Shown piece after piece: positions 21,115 to 60,339 of a stretch of 64,000 nt of DNA. This stretch comes from Candidatus Bathyarchaeota archaeon. GTDB lineage: Archaea > Thermoproteota > Bathyarchaeia > Bathyarchaeales > DTEX01. The notes beneath the pieces were generated by a model that did not search any database, was not told the DNA's origin, and was given only the letters and a program-made list of their open reading frames with translations. The stretch spans positions 157,447-221,446 of the forward strand of contig CAVQNT010000007.1 in NCBI GenBank assembly GCA_963714275.1, written 5' to 3'. The position numbers and the translations under genes were made by a program. Position 1 is the first letter of the stretch. Each line of letters begins with the position of its first letter.

Positions 21115-21277
21115 TAAATTTTACCTCTAAACTCAAACTTTTTCTTTTTTATTCTTTTTCTACCTTTCTCTGTATCCCATTAGACGTGTACATGGTTTAG
21201 TGTGTGTGTACTTGTACCAGTTCTCTTTTAGTACAGTACATTTCAACAGTGGTTTTGTATTTTGTATGTTTTTTTGT
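21115..21277 (+). repeat. ~163-bp non-coding repeat, copy 1 (copy 2 at 29658-29821)
   Basis: Near-identical direct copies (about 5 differences), both starting at TAAATTTTA. Confidence 0.9.
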
Positions 21278-21392
21278 AGAGAGAGAGTATAAGTTAGCTG
21301 ACTATGAGAGTAAGGGAGAGAAAAGGCGTGAGTTAAAGGAAGGAGGAGTCAAAATTTGATCCACAAATATCTGACGTGCGTGTTGGCCCAGA

Positions 21393-21803
21393 TTACGGCT
21401 GCTTGAAGTCTACACTACTCTCAGGTTGTGTGCTTAACACCTGCTCAGCTGCAACCGGTGCTTTAACCATAAATGATGTTTCTGTTCCGCTAACGCCATC
21501 GCTTGCTTTTACAGTGTACATTCCTGTTGTTGCATCAGGCCCGTAGGTTGTAAAGAAAAGTCCTTCCGCGCCAGATTCTATAAGCCAATTACTAAGAGTA
21601 CCATCAGGCCTTATTACTTCAACATCAACCTTCGCATTTGACACGAAAAAAAAGCCAGAAATGGTGACCGTTTCATCAGGATCATAATTTGATTTATCCG
21701 TCGAAATTGCCGCAACAGTGCGAGAAGATTTCGTTACTATTACCACTGTTGACAATAATGTCAGGAATACTATTAGTATCACGACCGAAACTCTGTTTTT
21801 CAA
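21393..21803 (-). CDS. Secreted Ig-like/surface protein, probably truncated
   Basis: Signal peptide, ISTDKSNYDPDETVTISG, GMYTVKASDG. Confidence 0.6.
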   Translation of the reverse strand: MKNRVSVVILIVFLTLLSTVVIVTKSSRTVAAISTDKSNYDPDETVTISGFFFVSNAKVDVEVIRPDGTLSNWLIESGAEGLFFTTYGPDATTGMYTVKASDGVSGTETSFMVKAPVAAEQVLSTQPESSVDFKQP

Positions 21804-21877
21804 TTTTTCTCATCCCAAAGCACGCGCTTGTGCTCATATAGAATCTGTCTTCGGGCAGATAAGACTTATGGCAGAGG

Positions 21878-21996
21878 AGTCAGCTAGCTATTGAATTTAC
21901 AGCCACTTGTGTATTTGTTTGTGTGATATACGGGATACATGCGTGGATACAAGTAGAAAGAAAGAATATATAAGAAGAAGAAAAGCTTAAAATTTA
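21878..21996 (-). repeat. Linker-arm-core element
   Basis: AGTCAGCTAGCTA linker, GTGTGATATAC arm, TAAAATTTA core at 21988. Confidence 0.75.
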
Positions 21997-22065
21997 ATTC
22001 CTATAAACAAACGTTCAGATATTTAGTTTCTGTGCTAGTATTGCGGGCAAGTCTTAAATTCCGTT

Positions 22066-22518
22066 ATGGTAACAATTTTCATGATTAGAATGTCAGAGAA
22101 AGATGGGTTAAGTGTGCGTGAGCGAGCTCAGATTAAAGCAATTACTAGTTGGACAGATGAGCAAATCAGTAATTTGTCACCAAAGATGTTAAAATTTTTA
22201 AAATTGGCTAAAACCCAAGATTACAAGATGATTGCTGAAGTCGTCCGGTCAGAAAATTGTAGTTTTAAACTAAAAAAGGGAGACAAGCTTGTTTTTGGTT
22301 CCGCAGGAATATTGCTTCGGGACGAATCTACTGCAAATCTGTGCCTCTGGGCAATAGCTCCTCTACTACCATTTAACTACATGATTTACGACCGTCTTTA
22401 CGAAGAACTTGATCCTAACGATATTTTTCCTGATCATGTTAAGTGTACTGATGTCGGAGTAGCGTGTGGCGGTTTTGGTGAAGTTCTCTTTAAAATCTCT
22501 TGCCAAAAAGAGAGATAG
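22066..22518 (+). CDS. TIGR04076-like Cys-containing protein
   Basis: AEVVRSENCSFKLKKGDK, NLCLWA, KCTD...EVLFKI. Confidence 0.55.
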   Translation: MVTIFMIRMSEKDGLSVRERAQIKAITSWTDEQISNLSPKMLKFLKLAKTQDYKMIAEVVRSENCSFKLKKGDKLVFGSAGILLRDESTANLCLWAIAPLLPFNYMIYDRLYEELDPNDIFPDHVKCTDVGVACGGFGEVLFKISCQKER

Positions 22519-22833
22519 TCACTCAGCAATGCCCTAAATAGGAAATATGTTGCTAAATCAAAAAGTAAAAAGCCTTCTTGAAAGGCTGGAGAAAGAAGAT
22601 TGACGCCAAATTCGTTTAAGCCACCTAAAATTGTTGAGTTTGAAAAGGAAAAATATAATATTACATGAAATTCACAAAAAAAATTTTAGTGAAGGTCTAA
22701 TTAGTTTAAATTGTAAACTTTTATGATGTCATTTATTTATTTTTTCAGTGGGCATTAGAACCTTTCATATAATGATATTTATAAACAAGGCTTCCTACTA
22801 TATTGTAATACAACGTGTGAGGAAGATAAAGTT

Positions 22834-23121
22834 TTGTCTAGAGAACCAGAAGTAATGTTTGTAGGCATAAAACCGCCGATGAGCTATGTTTTGGGTATCA
22901 TCACCGTTTTTAGTAAATCGGACATTAAAGAAGTTACGTTGAAGGCGAGAGGACAAGCGATAAACACCGCTGTTGACGCAGCTGAAATTGCTAGGCATAG
23001 ATTCATGAAAGAACTGAATGTAAGCAAAATCAGTATAGGAACGGAAGAGATGCCATCGAGAGAAGATGGAAATAAAAACAGAAACATATCAACTATCGCA
23101 ATAACCTTGACACGGCAGTAA
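22834..23121 (+). CDS. albA: Alba DNA/RNA-binding protein
   Basis: VFVGIKPPMSYVL-like start, LKARGQAINTAVDAAEI, IGTEE, ISTIAITL. Confidence 0.9.
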   Translation: MSREPEVMFVGIKPPMSYVLGIITVFSKSDIKEVTLKARGQAINTAVDAAEIARHRFMKELNVSKISIGTEEMPSREDGNKNRNISTIAITLTRQ

Positions 23122-23186
23122 GCCAGTCAGCTAGAGAAAGAAGAAGCGTTGAACGAAGAAAATAATACCTATCCGTTCTTGCCAAT

Positions 23187-23423
23187 TTAGATTCTGATGA
23201 GGAAAACCATGTCCTTGGTATAGATTTTTCTTTCTTCAGTAGCGTGGTTTCTGTATGGCAAGCTGGATTTTGTGCGGATAGCCACTTTCTCTATTTTAAC
23301 GAAGTGGTCATGTGTGCACTTGACTGCTATGACTTTCTCGCTTTCGCTGATCCACACTATGTGGGCATTATGTCCCTCAGGACATTTATAAACGTCTCCA
23401 ACCTTCAAATCCATTCTTGTCAA
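23187..23423 (-). CDS. Small hypothetical protein (CPEGH...C motif)
   Basis: 78-aa ORF. Confidence 0.45.
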   Translation of the reverse strand: MTRMDLKVGDVYKCPEGHNAHIVWISESEKVIAVKCTHDHFVKIEKVAIRTKSSLPYRNHATEERKIYTKDMVFLIRI

Positions 23424-23610
23424 CCTTCAAAACAATCCTTTTTAGTGATTGTTAACCCGAGATAAGAACCCTTTCCTTCTTGATTATACGGAGTATTTCT
23501 TGCGTCGCCAAAGATATTTGGTGGCTGCAAGATCAAAGGGATCAATATCTTTTATACGGTTTTGATTAAGACTAGGACTTTCAATATATCATAGTCTGGA
23601 ATAAAAACCA

Positions 23611-23710
23611 TTAGTGAGCTAGAACGTTTTTGTGTGATATACGATATACTGAGCAAACAGAAGCGGATAAGAAATAAAAAAAGAGAGAGAAAGATTAGAT
23701 TTTAGTCCAA
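23611..23710 (-). repeat. Linker-arm-core element (arm shared with 29815-29898)
   Basis: TTAGTGAGCTAG linker, TGTGTGATATACGATATACTGAGCAAACAGAAGCG arm, TAGATTTTA core. Confidence 0.8.
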
Positions 23711-29613: not shown

Positions 29614-30019
29614 GCTAGCTAGCTATAGCGCGTGAGAACGTTAGAGTGTGTGGAGGGTAAATTTTATCTCTAAACTCAGACTTTTTCTTTTTTATTCTTT
29701 TTCTACCTTTCTCTGTGTCCCATTTAGACATGTACATGGTTTAGTGTGTGTGTACTTGTACCAGTTCTCTTTTAGTACAGTACATTTCAACAGTGGTTTT
29801 GTATTTTGTATGTTTTTTTGTGTGATATTCGATATACTGAGCAAACAGAAGCGTATAAAATAAATAATTAGAGAGAGAAAAAGATTAAAATTTAGTCCCC
29901 AAACCTAAACATTGTCTTTCTTTCTTTTATTCTCTCTCTACCTTACTCCGTATCACGTATATCGTGTATATCACACACAACACAAATAAAAAACCCTAAA
30001 CAGTAGCTGACTGGCTTAG
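29614..30019. repeat. Composite non-coding element with two cores and three arm types
   Basis: Linker 29614, core 29658, arm matching 21115-21277, arm matching 23627-23708, core 29886, arm matching the reverse complement of 45467-45562, linker 30004. Confidence 0.85.
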
Positions 30020-30949: not shown

Positions 30950-31115
30950 TAAGAAGAAAAAACGTTCAAAAAGAAATTGAAAAGTATAAAAATAAGAAGT
31001 GTCTATGTTTTCGTAACGAAAAACTAAAACAAAAAAGTGAATTAAATGACGTATAAGCGAAGTAATAGAGAATCCCGAAAGACGCATCGAAGGCATCCTA
31101 AAAAGAAGGAAAAAG
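30950..31115 (+). repeat. 166-bp repeat, copy 1 (inverted copy at 38358-38523)
   Basis: Reverse-complement match with no mismatch found by eye. Confidence 0.92.
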
Positions 31116-31205
31116 CTAGCTCAGCTCAGTAGGACTACTAAGAATTCTAGTCTTTCCTACTTCTTCTAATCCAAGTCGCACAAATATAGTATTTATTAAC
31201 TAAAT

Positions 31206-37737: not shown

Positions 37738-37780
37738 TAGTCAGCTTGCTCGAGGTAGCGGAGATGACGATACTTAGTAA

Positions 37781-38110
37781 TTATGGACGATTTGGAAAAT
37801 AATAAGGTAATGTGTCATACGATGAAGGTTCTGTTCCTTTATCCCTAACCCTTCGCTCTTTTTTATGTTTACGTTTGGCAACTCTGATGACCTCTCCTTC
37901 TTCAATTACCCTGTAAGCCTCTGATAAACCCCTTTGATGCAGAAACCTTTTAACAAATGCTTTTACACTCTTTGTCAACAATTTTTCTTCTCCTACATCC
38001 AAAACTAAAGATTCACCCTTAACAGCAATTGAAACTCGAATTCTTGACTCAAGAAAGTCAGAAAGATAATCCCGTTCTTCTTTCATTTCACTCACGTCAA
38101 CTGTTATCAA
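37781..38110 (-). CDS. Ribosomal protein eL22-like protein
   Basis: LSDFLESRIRV and KAFVKRFLHQRGLSEAYRV resemble eL22 FLQERIKV and KYLTKKYLKKNNLRDWLRV. Confidence 0.6.
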   Translation of the reverse strand: MITVDVSEMKEERDYLSDFLESRIRVSIAVKGESLVLDVGEEKLLTKSVKAFVKRFLHQRGLSEAYRVIEEGEVIRVAKRKHKKERRVRDKGTEPSSYDTLPYYFPNRP

Positions 38111-38267
38111 TGCTAATCTATTCCATAATAATTGAAATCTAAATATGCAAATATTTGCCTTTTTGAAAAAACCGTAAAGTGGAAGTCAGCTAGAAAAGAT
38201 TCATTCCTACTTCTACAGATATTTATAGCAAGCACCTTCGAGAATGACAACTGCATAGCTCAGCTAG

Positions 38268-38345
38268 CATCATCCATGTCGGTAATCCCTGTTCTTCTTC
38301 AACAACGACTGTGAGAGTATCAGTTGCAGTATTCCCGGCTGCGTC
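38268..38345 (-). pseudogene. 26-codon internal fragment of a PKD/Ig-domain surface protein
   Basis: DAAGNTATDTLTVVVEEEQGLPTWMM, bounded on both sides by linkers. Confidence 0.6.
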
Positions 38346-38357
38346 TTAGCTCGCTGA

Positions 38358-38523
38358 CTTTTTCCTTCTTTTTAGGATGCCTTCGATGCGTCTTTCGGGA
38401 TTCTCTATTACTTCGCTTATACGTCATTTAATTCACTTTTTTGTTTTAGTTTTTCGTTACGAAAACATAGACACTTCTTATTTTTATACTTTTCAATTTC
38501 TTTTTGAACGTTTTTTCTTCTTA
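38358..38523 (-). repeat. 166-bp repeat, copy 2 (inverted)
   Basis: Reverse complement of 30950-31115. Confidence 0.92.
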
Positions 38524-38555
38524 ATAAAATTTTTATGAGATGTATTTATTCAATC

Positions 38556-39740
38556 TTATTTTTTCTTCATGAATTGGAGGTTCTTTGCAATCAATTTGTT
38601 CAATGTAGCCACTGAGGTATGTGTCCTGTAACCATCGGCAGGTGTATTAAGGCAATAGTCGACCAGTTTTTCAACCGTTGTTGTAGCGACATGCATCCTA
38701 GTATCGGAGGAAGCATAGTAAATATATACTTCGCCATTATCCTTTTTAATCCAACCATTAGTAAACAAAACATTTGATACGTCCCCTACCCTTTCTTCTC
38801 CATCGGGAGCCATAAAATAGCCGCCCGGAGTAGCAATTACTTTCCAAGGCTCTTTCAGATCGGTCATGAACATATAAAGCACGTATCGCAAGCCTGCAAC
38901 GCAACCACGAACTCCATGGGCAAGATGCAGCCATCCTTTATCTGTTTTAATGGGTGCAGGGCCCTGGCCGTTTTTCACTTCTTTAACGGTATGATAAACA
39001 CGAGGCTCAATGATAAGTTCGTCCCTAACTTCGGCATTTTCCATGCTGTCAATTAAAGCCCAGCCAATGCCACCGCCCGAACCGGCATCGATAAAGCTGT
39101 CCTGTGGACGGGTGTACAACGCATATTTGCCGTCAATAAATTCTGGATGTAGTACCACGTTACGTTGTTGGCTCCTGGTTTTCAGGTCTGGCAAGCGTTC
39201 CCATAGCACAAGGTCTTTTGTACGAACAATGCCCGCTTTTGCTACAGCAGACGACAGGTCACCTGCAGGTGCATCGGGGTCTTTACGCTCCGAACAAAAA
39301 ATTCCGTAAATCCAGCCATCTTTATGCTGTGTAAGACGCATGTCATAAACGTTGGTTTCGTCTTTGTCGATATTGGGAAGTGCAATGGGATAATCCCAGA
39401 AACGCCATTGTTCAATGCCATTTGGGCTTTCTGCCACGGCAAAAAACGATTTGCGGTCCCAGCCTTCAACACGTACTATCATTAAATAACGTTTGTTAAA
39501 CAGAATAACTCCGGAATTGAATGCAGCATTGATACCAATGCGTTGCATTAAGTTGGGATTGGTATTGTAGTCGAGATCATAACGCCAAAATACCGGGGCA
39601 TGTTCAGCCGTAAAAATAGGATATTTATAGCGATCGTAAATGCCGTTACCATTTTCACATTTTTCATTTCGTCGCATTATAAGTCTTTCATGACGTTTAA
39701 ACAACTTCTTTACCTGGTTATCGAAATCATTTTTATTCAT
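38556..39740 (-). CDS. GH130 4-O-beta-D-mannosyl-D-glucose phosphorylase-like protein
   Basis: [61 protein letters not shown]. Confidence 0.9.
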
Positions 39741-39907: not shown

Positions 39908-39955
39908 GCTAGCTAGCATGGGTTTGGGGACTAAAATTTAAGCTGAGCTAACTAA
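39908..39955. repeat. Minimal linker-core-linker element
   Basis: GCTAGCTAGC-ATGGGTTTGGGGAC-TAAAATTTA-AGCTGAGCTAACTAA. Confidence 0.75.
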
Positions 39956-45466: not shown

Positions 45467-45690
45467 TGTGTGATATACACGATATACATGATACGGAGTA
45501 AGGTAGAGAGAGATAGAATAAGAATAGAAGAATAAGAGAAAAAAGGAAAGTGGGTTTGGGGTTAAATTTTAATCTTTCTCTGGCTCACTCTGACGCTCAC
45601 ACAAGTCTCTCTCTCACTCTCTCTGTGTCACAGAGACAGACACGCACACACGACACAACACACACATACTAGCTAACTAGCTAGCTAAGC
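45467..45690. repeat. Two-armed core element ending in a five-stop linker
   Basis: GGGTTTGGGGT-TAAATTTTA-ATCTTTCTC; right arm resembles 55561-55667; linker CTAGCTAACTAGCTAGCTAAGC. Confidence 0.85.
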
Positions 45691-47069: not shown

Positions 47070-47521
47070 AACATTAAGACAATTTGATACTTTTCAGAAA
47101 GTATGCTCTTCTTCCTTTTTTGTTTATAGCCCGCCGATAAGTTTTTCTCTTCTCTTTTTAAATTTTCTCATGACGGTTAAGTTACCTATTACATATTTGA
47201 CTTCCTAGTGAGCTGGGTTAATTTAAAACTCTTTGAAATCATCCTATTCCAATACTTTTCAAGCAACGAGTATATCCTTTTAGTCGAAAGGATATACGCA
47301 TTTTTTTATTTGATTGAGTTATACTGCTTTGAACTAGACTTAACAGCGTAACAAGGCATAGGTCTTTCTTGAACCTGATAAAGTCAAAAACACCAATCAA
47401 ACTGAACCAAAGGTTGGTGGTGGTGGTGATTAAAATTTAATCCCAAACCCAAATTTACTTACTCTTAACAATAGGAAAGTATTTGTACAAATAAAAAATA
47501 AAAGGAAGTTTGATGTGGGGC

Positions 47522-55551: not shown

Positions 55552-55667
55552 TAAAATTTAATCTTTCTCTGCCACGCTTAGACGCTCACACAGACTCTCT
55601 CTCTCTGTGTCACACAGACAGAGACACATACAGACAGACACAGACACACACAACTAAGCTAGTTAGC
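55552..55667 (+). repeat. Core-arm-linker element (paralog of 45563-45690)
   Basis: TAAAATTTA-ATCTTTCTCT, GACGCTCACACA, CA/GA tract, CTAAGCTAGTTAGC. Confidence 0.8.
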
Positions 55668-57136: not shown

Positions 57137-57251
57137 CTAGCGCTAGCTAGCTTTGGGTTTGGCGCGCGCATTTTTGTGTGTGCGTGTTTTTTGTTTGTTG
57201 TGTGTATTGTATCTCTGTCTCTGCCTGTGTGTCTCTGTGTCTGTGTGTAAG
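57137..57251 (-). repeat. Linker plus TG-rich arm (core absent)
   Basis: CTAGCGCTAGCTAGC followed by a ~98-bp TG/TC tract. Confidence 0.6.
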
Positions 57252-57452
57252 TTACTTTTCTCTTTGTTTTATGATTACTAGATCTCCATCAATAGTAACT
57301 ATGCCAAACCGTGCCATCATCGTTATTTTCTCTTCTACGGTACGCTTTGTTTCTTCATTCTCCCCAAAAGCGCGGATGATCTCTTGTCTTTTTGCTTTAC
57401 CGTTATTTTTCATGAGATACTGATGTATCATATAATCTTGTACCTCAGACAT
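57252..57452 (-). CDS. Small winged-helix-like protein
   Basis: 66 aa, helix-helix-helix-beta hairpin pattern (FGIVTIDGDLV). Confidence 0.5.
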   Translation of the reverse strand: MSEVQDYMIHQYLMKNNGKAKRQEIIRAFGENEETKRTVEEKITMMARFGIVTIDGDLVIIKQREK

Positions 57453-59308: not shown

Positions 59309-60101
59309 ATGTCTAGGTTCTTTAAGCGAAAGAAGAAGGAAGAGAAAGAAGGAAGAGAAAAAAGAAGAGAAAGAGGAAAGTTTGTTGAAGCAACTATGTG
59401 GAGACGATGAAAAACTATATGATGTTCTTGCAACTCTCCTGTATTTGAATCCTATAGCGGGAATATCCAAAACGGATCTCGAGATCCTCATCGAAGAAGC
59501 AGAGAAAAGCAACACGGAAAAAAATTATGAAGAGGCAATTCTCAAAAATAGAATGGTACTGGATAAGGCCATTTTCGAAGCCACTCAAAATCCGAGGGAA
59601 AAGAGTAGATACATCAAAGTCATCCAAGACCTCGCGTCGAAGACCGTACATATGACGGAGAAAACAAAAGAAGGGGTAGAGAAGAATGGACTCACCGACC
59701 AAGTTGCTTCCCTTGAGAGAAGAATTAAGAATTATAAATTTATTAGCGAAAGAATCGAAGACGTACTAAACGTAGACTTCTCAATTTTACAATGAGATAT
59801 TAGTAACGCTGGGAGAAACGGAGAGGCGCGAAGCAAGACGAGAAGAGAGAAGAGAAGCTGAGAGCGAAGAAACGAGAATAGAAGAAGAAGAAAAAGAGAA
59901 ACGAGAAAAGAGAATAAAAACGAGAAGAGAGATGGGAAGAGAAGAGAGAGAAAAAAGTGAGATTGAAGAGCAAAAAGAAGAGCGAAAAGCAAAGGAGAGG
60001 CACGAAGCAAGAGGAGAAGAGAGAAGAGAAAGGCTGAGAGCGAAGAAACGAGAATAGAAGAAGAAGAAAAAGAGAAACGAGAAGAGAGAAGAAAAAGATA
60101 A
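59309..60101 (+). CDS. Helical protein with long E/R/K-rich C-terminal tail, frameshifted
   Basis: ORF 59304-59795 continues in another frame as ERREARREERREAESEETRIEEEEKEKRE; TAA at 60099. Confidence 0.6.
59821..60089 (+). repeat. ~93-bp coding direct repeat (59821-59913 and 59995-60089)
   Basis: GCTGAGAGCGAAGAAACGAGAATAGAAGAAGAAGAAAAAGAGAAACGAGAA occurs twice. Confidence 0.85.
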
Positions 60102-60339
60102 AAATTTAATCCAAAACCCATTCTGTTCTATTCTGTGTATGCTCTCTACATTACTCTTTACTCTACTCTATTCTCTCCTATCACAATATACGATAAGGCT
60201 TCTTCATTAATCAGCGTTTCAAGTGTCTGACTATATCCGACTTTTATTCTTGGAATTTCGAGAGTGCAACAAGTTCTTTAAGGTTAAAAGGGTTTGGGGG
60301 TTAAAATTTACCTACCCGAATAAAGGGTAATTGCATTAG

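Follow-up and report, generated by a model that had tools for sequence, protein, structure and literature searches.

A probable relic of a PKD-anchor surface-protein gene between short, lineage-specific intergenic linkers in a Bathyarchaeota genome

What is a 26-codon scrap of an apparent surface-protein gene doing between two short motifs that recur in the intergenic DNA of the same genome, and what are those motifs? The question is raised by positions 38268-38345 (minus strand) of a window of 64,000 nt, the whole stretch of DNA analyzed here (G000:C7:157447-221446), in the genome of a Candidatus Bathyarchaeota archaeon (G000; 2.64 Mb in 10 contigs, 42-44% G+C, 91% complete). The minus-strand reading of the scrap, DAAGNTATDTLTVVVEEEQGLPTWMM, lies between TAGCTCAGCTAGC (38256-38268) and TTAGCTCGCTGAC (38346-38358), hereafter the left and right linkers, and both flank it as the first-pass annotation of this DNA had described. 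The 26 codons run from 38345 to 38268 and overlap the left linker by a single base, which ends codon 26 and opens the linker; the unique core of the scrap is 77 nt (38269-38345), the 78th base being the shared one. A TAA within the right linker closes the PKD frame directly upstream of the D that opens the scrap. At the left linker there is no stop, and the frame stays open for 14 further codons. By our estimate, an open stretch of 26 codons in one of six frames is unremarkable by itself. Because a stop lies directly upstream and a start codon is absent, the scrap is a relic and not a gene; the intact frame with start and stop expected of a PKD-anchor gene is missing from it. Judged by its translation and by a profile of PKD tails, it holds a last beta-strand, an acidic spacer and the first residues of an anchor. 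In itself, the scrap is an ordinary pseudogene fragment.

The PKD-tail profile (40 nodes, 9 tails) had as its seeds the last PKD strand and the anchor of loci L038-L046, and was compared with all 78,270 stop-to-stop peptides from the six frames of the genome. The scrap ranked first with 38.6 bits (E 3.2e-9), 25 bits above the runner-up (13.7 bits, E 0.19), scores from a profile that is partly circular, its seeds having been gathered with a locus (L035) itself found via the scrap and seven of the nine seed loci also being among the scrap's own six-frame matches. The genome-wide E value bears out the first-pass proposal that the scrap is an internal piece of a PKD surface-protein gene without a start of its own. 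Its alignment pairs scrap residues 1-29 with profile positions 7-33, so homology sets in with the first codon past the right linker and fades out some three residues inside the left one; the six conserved family residues that precede the matched stretch are replaced here by linker and module. These limits of homology support the bounding by linkers that had been claimed.

In 401 genomes of the class, searched in six frames, the scrap had weak matches, the best of which (E 4.3e-4 per genome) is not significant on its own over 401 genomes. Many of these matches align scrap residues 1-28 inside ORFs of 390-1,100 aa. Two of the loci, L035 and L036, encode a NosD/beta-helix region, PKD_4 and a transmembrane anchor (Pfam E 1.6e-36 and 5.6e-24), and at their C-termini a short spacer joins the last PKD strand to G/A-F-P-x-W, after which come a hydrophobic helix and a basic tail. 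The scrap agrees with them in order and spacing: it conforms to the last-strand motif D-x-[AS]-G-[NS] ... T-x-T-V-x-V of the PKD domains of anchored proteins, has the short spacer and carries the anchor start GLPTW (G-[FL]-P-x-W). Whereas the PKD-anchor surface proteins of the class are several hundred residues long, the scrap keeps only about 26-32, and besides the start codon it lacks the hydrophobic helix of about 20 residues and the basic tail. A degenerate-pattern scan for its first ten residues, DAAGNTATDT, found this exact decapeptide at no fewer than 121 metagenome loci. Among the matches listed, it lies at the ends of Ig-like domains in the 40 rows inspected, and two of these rows (L119 and L077) share the architecture of domain end, anchor, basic tail and stop. 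The tail profile and the matched proteins together support the earlier description of the peptide as the end of a PKD/Ig domain running into a membrane anchor.

General searches were silent. For the scrap read as 40 aa, Pfam returned no family at E <= 10, with the PKD models PF18911 and PF00801 below their gathering threshold; about 17 of the 80-85 positions of a PKD domain remain in the scrap. The same 40-aa reading, compared with longer proteins, drew 52 candidates from 5.8 billion protein clusters, none at E <= 10. This silence and the shortness of the frame would suit a chance likeness, in which the 78 bases are plain spacer DNA or the 3' part of a micro-ORF transcript, as would the micro-ORF of the neighboring module, which extends eight codons into the scrap. 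We find this hardly credible in view of the first rank and the 25-bit gap, of the exact ten-residue word shared with natural loci at domain ends, and of the correct spacing from the domain end to the G-[FL]-P-x-W anchor start. The scrap is very probably, on these sequence comparisons, a genuine relic of a gene for a PKD-domain, C-terminally anchored surface protein.

The first-pass annotation had argued that the scrap favors capture or repair of broken fragments, and had suggested a tBLASTn or BLASTn search of the genome and of the co-occurring metagenome for the donor gene. In blastn-short and tblastn searches of its own genome the scrap found no donor, and its core DNA had no match in 40 relatives, where only the flanking modules were matched. 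No donor gene was found in the genome itself, the 40 relatives, the 401 class genomes or the 121 metagenome loci listed. DNA identity of the scrap to PKD tails was at best 49/78 among the metagenome loci listed and 24-29/48 for tails of the class, and blastn against 33 PKD loci returned chance words only. PKD genes are likewise absent from the 91%-complete genome, which has 0 matches for PF18911 and PF00801 and 0 matches for the C-termini of L035 and L036, and a six-frame search showed no second PKD remnant. The C-terminal 100 residues of L035, used as a query, retrieved PKD-anchor proteins from 140 of 301 genomes of the class, including the same-genus genome G004. With no donor found, a pasted-in origin of the scrap is something that we infer, and erosion of a resident gene could also have left the scrap.

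The surroundings of the scrap are composite. In minus-strand order they comprise a GH130 gene, a repeated module, the right linker, the scrap, the left linker, a 62-nt segment, a third linker and a 109-aa gene, and the scrap sits in a mosaic, non-syntenic stretch just downstream of the GH130 gene. The GH130 phosphorylase gene (38556-39740, minus strand; Pfam PF04041, E 8.6e-25) is the sole part of the neighborhood with an ortholog in each of G001-G005, and its DNA is 91% identical to G002:C57 from 38529 onwards, the homology ending at 38529. The right linker forms the junction between the relic and the module. The latter (38359-38523, minus strand; 165-171 nt) has a TATA-like box and a very small basic ORF, and its other copies lie at 30950-31120 (inverted, 99% identical), on contig C4 of the same genome, in G002 (two) and in G004 (one). 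All of the copies begin exactly at the edge of the right linker (query position 259/260). The linkers on copies of this one module differ, and one copy is flanked by near-identical direct repeats. The 23-codon core of the basic ORF shows 11 synonymous and 1 non-synonymous codon differences among the five other copies. In the copy next to the scrap the micro-ORF is 35 aa long (38320-38427, minus strand), crossing the right linker and eight scrap codons in a frame other than that of the PKD reading; in four of the five other copies it stops one codon past the 23-aa core, and in three the stop lies inside the adjacent linker. In other contigs the module is preceded by other linker variants, as loose ends.

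On the other side of the scrap, the 62-nt segment (38194-38255) lies between two linkers; its first 16 or so minus-strand nucleotides may continue the anchor helix, and the remainder shows homology to an intergenic unit of G002:C44. The third linker, AGTCAGCTAG (38184-38193), is an in-line insertion in otherwise continuous sequence, as judged against G002:C44 (7 extra nt) and a paralog on C6. Beyond it lies the 109-aa gene with its upstream region (37778-38182, minus strand), a duplicated cassette with a 95% identical copy at G000:C6:315349-315752; no Pfam family matched the protein. Rfam found only a tRNA in the window, the predicted fold of the region was no better than that of shuffles on either strand (z 0.06 and 0.95), a search by eye for C/D-box sRNA features gave nothing convincing, and among the sequencing runs listed as containing the locus there was no RNA run.

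Contigs from runs X3 and X4, which belong to two other public studies, bridge the locus from the 5' part of the 109-aa gene through the linkers, the 62-nt segment and the scrap to the start of the module. The X3 contig (471 nt) covers 37938-38416 and the X4 contig (430 nt) covers 37946-38376. Since contigs from two other studies span the mosaic, its arrangement is not an assembly artefact. The samples differ by small indels in all three linkers. In the left linker, base 38261 is missing from X3 and X4, which gives a TAGC-repeat form. In the right linker, X2-X4 have G>A at 38356 and an extra T after 38358. Around the third linker (38183-38189), X2, X3 and X4 carry differing deletions of 1-4 nt. 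The scrap itself varies at one position only, 38313 (G>A in X4), and this change is synonymous in the PKD frame.

The linkers belong to a larger family. Allowing up to 2 mismatches, the left motif has 10 matches in the window where 0.93 are expected and the right motif 6 where 1.27 are expected; none of 100 shuffles reached 10 for the left motif, and the right motif also gave 0/100. The most over-represented 10-mers of the genome include TAGCTAGCTA, TAGCGCGCGC, TAGCT[CG]AGCT and TAGTGAGCTA. Counted on both strands, TAGCTAGCTA occurs 90 times against 1.2 expected, and TAGCTSAGCTA variants are enriched 20-24-fold. The linkers can be read as short, palindrome-like arrays of T(N)AGC units, the left one, for example, as TAGC+TCAGC+TAGC. 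In the window their length is 10-23 nt, and the distances between them are irregular, ranging from tens to hundreds of nucleotides. On a crude ORF map (ORFs of at least 100 aa, about 75% of the genome), 83-100% of the occurrences of five linker motifs fall in the roughly 25% of the genome outside such ORFs. They are present in convergent, divergent and tandem gaps with no sharp preference for a distance to gene starts or ends, and their orientation relative to gene direction (12:10, 14:8 and 13:14) shows no strand bias. Conservation of the flanks ends one or two bases out. Mildly clustered, they concentrate in islands rich in duplicated segments.

Outside this lineage the motifs are rare. TAGCTSAGCTA occurs 52 times in the genome and 0-5 times in each of 40 relatives, and TAGCTAGCTA 45 times in the genome, 17 times in G002, 4 times in G004 and 0-3 times elsewhere. 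At orthologous sites in G002 (11 examined, about 6 of them informative) the linkers appear as small in-line insertions (4 nt, about 12 nt) or differ by one central base. The linkers are a lineage-specific, almost purely intergenic and hypervariable motif family. The extra central base of TAGCT-S-AGCTA is near-unique to this assembly, and it is missing at 38261 in two samples; this variant may therefore be a base-calling artefact at a modified palindrome.

The relation of linkers to the ends of homology was then measured on duplicated segments, defined as self-matches with a minimum of 120 nt and of 80% identity, and intergenic positions were taken from the same crude ORF map. Of 637 intergenic match ends, 99 (15.5%) have a linker no more than 15 nt outside the match, compared with 14.5 +/- 3.9 for random intergenic positions (maximum 22 in 50 draws). 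A looser test on all intergenic self-hits gave 4.4% versus 2.6%, and the well-defined duplications were used in its place. At 77 such ends the sequence past the linker was compared: homology resumes at 1, is ambiguous at 1 and does not resume at 75. The first-pass view that the linkers are not promoters or terminators is supported by these counts, as the excess at breakpoints and the lack of strand bias argue against either role. For 490 boundaries (245 pairs), a linker is present in one copy at 107, in both at 13 and in neither at 370. AGCT, CTAG, TAGC or GCTA is found at the linker-less partner boundary in 21 of the 107 (9.1% at random positions), a weak 2-fold excess. The genome also holds 122 intergenic scraps of ORFs found elsewhere in it; the ends of such scraps of long ORFs are fuzzy, and 15 of 244 (6.1% versus 2.3%) carry a linker. 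Linkers at both ends of one duplicated copy were seen in 8 cases, with about 9 expected if the ends were independent. A linker is therefore the mark of one junction, and a pair of linkers around a piece, as at this scrap, is not the rule; the idea that pieces are sealed by linkers on both sides fails when it is taken generally.

The linkers are tied to true breakpoints of homology, confined to intergenic DNA and to one lineage, hypervariable and free of strand bias. Together with their symmetry, these properties point to a DNA-level break-and-join process and not to a promoter, a terminator or an RNA. Our main reading, to which we give a probability of about one half, is that the scrap is a dead fragment of a lost or foreign PKD-anchor gene and that the flanking linkers are junction marks of such recombination at the DNA level. 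Unrelated segments of DNA would have been joined by break-and-join (illegitimate) recombination, with linkers marking the joints, and the scrap, instead of being left by erosion at the site, would have been pasted in from a lost or foreign gene. We lean to pasting because copying and pasting of fragments is certain within the islands, given their duplicated segments and ORF scraps. The linkers might be written during the joining event or might themselves provoke it; one conceivable route is that they act as fragile palindromes, which would be broken and then rejoined by Ku-independent end joining. Against reading linkers as junctions stand those that are in-line insertions in continuous sequence, as well as the share of intergenic duplicate ends that carry one, only 15.5%.

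In the alternative of erosion in place, a resident PKD gene was broken up step by step by deletions and by insertions such as the 171-nt module and the neighboring cassettes, and the linkers are small insertions or scars. When the 13 nt of the left linker are removed, the scrap runs in frame into hydrophobic residues like those of the family's anchor, a possible continuation of six residues, and the tail-profile score is 42.3 bits, compared with 36.7 for the core alone, 40.0 for the unaltered sequence and 36.9-38.0 for the remaining frames. The gain of 5.6 bits over the core, set against controls of 36.9-40.0, is a weak hint that the relic may once have been longer and that the left linker arrived later; the gain is small, however, and hydrophobic residues match easily. 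Erosion would also agree with the in-line insertions represented by the third linker and by several linkers compared with G002, and with the PKD-anchor proteins of G004, a member of the same genus. However, six-frame searches reveal no further PKD remnant in the genome, and the GH130 orthologs of G001-G005 have neither a PKD tail nor any of the neighbor genes of this locus within about 0.2-1.9 kb on either flank. On balance we consider erosion possible but doubtful.

The form of the linkers recalls the excision footprints of transposons. DDE transposons that target TA or CTAG (Tc1/mariner/IS630, IS5) leave short palindromic insertions with a variable centre, and the linkers would then be footprints or target duplications composed of target bases and a few terminal bases, with the modules as non-autonomous cargo. 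Palindromes with a variable centre (TAGCT|AGCTA, TAGCT-S-AGCTA) are what a target plus both inverted ends would give, and the short in-line insertions lie at sites that are continuous, or 'empty', in G002. The clustering in duplication-rich islands and the near-identical direct repeats around one module copy fit as well. However, DDE_3, DDE_Tnp_1, the TnpB domain and the Y1 transposase (PF01797) have 0 matches each in the 91%-complete genome, conservation does not reach past the motif, and one end of a copy carries a linker independently of the other. To our knowledge, footprints of TA- or CTAG-targeting DDE elements do not bound unrelated segments. We see only a slim chance that this explanation is right.

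We also considered that the linkers are sites for a lineage-specific dimeric protein that binds or modifies DNA (a regulator, nucleoid protein, methylase or nuclease); that they stand at module edges would then reflect the reuse of functional units. Strictly intergenic, dyad-symmetric 10-15-mers without strand bias could serve in this way, and they contain GCTAGC, AGCT and GCTNAGC, which we take to be known restriction-type palindromes. Binding sites would not be expected to vary so strongly in length and sequence between strains and between copies, to lack a fixed distance to gene starts or ends, or to be nearly absent from same-genus genomes that share the genes; the odds of this role appear slimmer still.

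The linkers invite comparison with known systems, of which BIME/REP mosaics, filler DNA at end-joining junctions, excision footprints and, more loosely, CRISPR arrays come nearest; for each of these, one or more of the defining features examined is lacking here. The BIME/REP elements of enterobacteria and pseudomonads are fast-evolving, lineage-specific, intergenic palindromic units that occur in mosaics and form stem-loops of 20-40 nt. The linkers likewise are intergenic, lineage-specific and palindromic and are combined into mosaic intergenic stretches; they differ in being 10-15-nt T(N)AGC arrays with no stable stem-loop and a fold no better than shuffles, in the lack of a cognate RAYT in the genome (the Y1 transposase), and in their position at breakpoints between unrelated segments. 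Junctions made by non-homologous (NHEJ) or microhomology-mediated (MMEJ) end joining contain filler DNA and captured fragments, and here too arbitrary pieces, gene fragments among them, are joined at junctions with extra short sequence. Microhomology-mediated end joining in archaea is the subject, to judge by excerpts of that source, of PMC12281630. Unlike filler DNA, which is random or templated nearby, the linker junctions are stereotyped TAGC units, and Ku was found in 0 of the 7 genomes of the genus. CRISPR arrays resemble the locus in that unrelated or foreign pieces lie between short, partly palindromic repeats, but their repeats are identical, at least 24 nt long and regularly spaced around uniform spacers, whereas the linkers are non-identical, 10-15 nt long and irregularly placed around pieces of about 20 nt to kilobases. 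Cas1 has 7 matches in the genome, 2 of them full length; as a candidate for the linker enzyme it was rejected, its presence not tracking the linkers within the genus. Integron attC sites, at about 57-141 nt, are far longer than the linkers.

The texts returned by our full-text literature searches held no description of motifs of the T(N)AGC linker type, and the family, together with its link to junctions, looks like something not described before, akin to mosaic intergenic repeats. That the linkers represent a new kind of process for joining fragments has a modest chance. In its strongest form, the proposal would be that a break-and-join activity of this lineage writes T(N)AGC arrays at the joints and pastes arbitrary DNA, including pieces of genes absent from the genome, into intergenic plasticity islands; we hold this to be rather improbable. 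If true, it would be a form of fragment capture in archaea that leaves a stereotyped signature at its junctions and differs from CRISPR adaptation, integrons and known transposition.

If linkers are indeed written or used in joining, they would be a legible trace of illegitimate recombination in a lineage of uncultured archaea, each linker flagging a past rearrangement. Genome plasticity, the capture of gene fragments and the origin of mosaic intergenic DNA, very small genes with a stop supplied by a linker among it, could then be counted from sequence, and the finding would point to a repair or recombination activity in archaea without Ku. Should they instead be fragile palindromes or binding sites, they would still constitute a new and sharply lineage-restricted family of intergenic repeats.

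The 165-171-nt module that starts at the right linker edge (window 38359-38523) recurs at window 30950-31120, at G000:C4:126356-126483 in another contig of the source genome (G000), and at L002:863-1028 and L003:1384-1537. It contains a TATA-like box and a 23-codon micro-ORF encoding a very basic peptide, MTYKRSNRESRKTHRRHPKK[KR]EK, for which no family was found in Pfam. Among the five copies other than 38359-38523, codon differences in the micro-ORF are 11 synonymous versus 1 non-synonymous, and in four of these five the reading frame ends one codon past the 23-codon core. Inspection of the flanks showed that the stop lies within the adjoining linker for three of these four.

PKD-domain genes gave 0 matches in the whole G000 genome when PF18911, PF00801 and the C-terminal tail of L035, a PKD-anchor protein locus from the class, were used as queries. 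Within the class, 140 of 301 genomes carry PKD-anchor proteins, and a same-genus relative (G004) is among them.

The linker variant TAGCT-S-AGCTA occurs 52 times in the G000 assembly versus 0-5 times per genome in 40 relatives, and its central base at window 38261 is missing in two other samples. The variant stems from one of two causes: a change specific to the lineage and very recent in origin, or base calling that errs systematically where the palindrome is modified.

Duplicated and fragmentary sequences were also found. A 109-aa gene with no known family in Pfam (window 37781-38110) is duplicated together with its upstream region at G000:C6:315349-315752, with 95% identity, and the linker side differs between the two copies. 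Besides two full-length Cas1 genes (G000:C7:144376-145197 and G000:C4:100381-101202), the genome holds five fragments with partial Cas1 matches; short copies of the Cas1 gene 3′ end region are dispersed in its intergenic DNA, one of them at window 60194-60259. Low-complexity tracts, built of CTCT/GTGT/CACAGAGACAGACA words or AG-rich 43-nt repeats, were found again across several intergenic gaps (window 45605-45650, 55587-55650, 57208-57252 and 59814-60095).

A second dispersed intergenic motif, TGGGTTTGGGG..TAAAATTTAATC, lies at window 29876-29905, 39918-39938, 45551-45574, 47428-47451 and 60090-60119, and its 10-mers are enriched 7-10-fold across the genome. At window 39908-39951 this motif is enclosed by a linker pair merely 21 nt apart. 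Finally, two repeats designated A and B directly adjoin each other at window 29658-29880; within window 21115-23692 they stand apart, at 21115-21277 and 23627-23692, with a 2.3-kb gene-bearing segment between them. Linkers lie close to both ends of this segment, and a short T-rich overlap (TTTTTGT) is present at both of its edges; the segment looks like an insertion.
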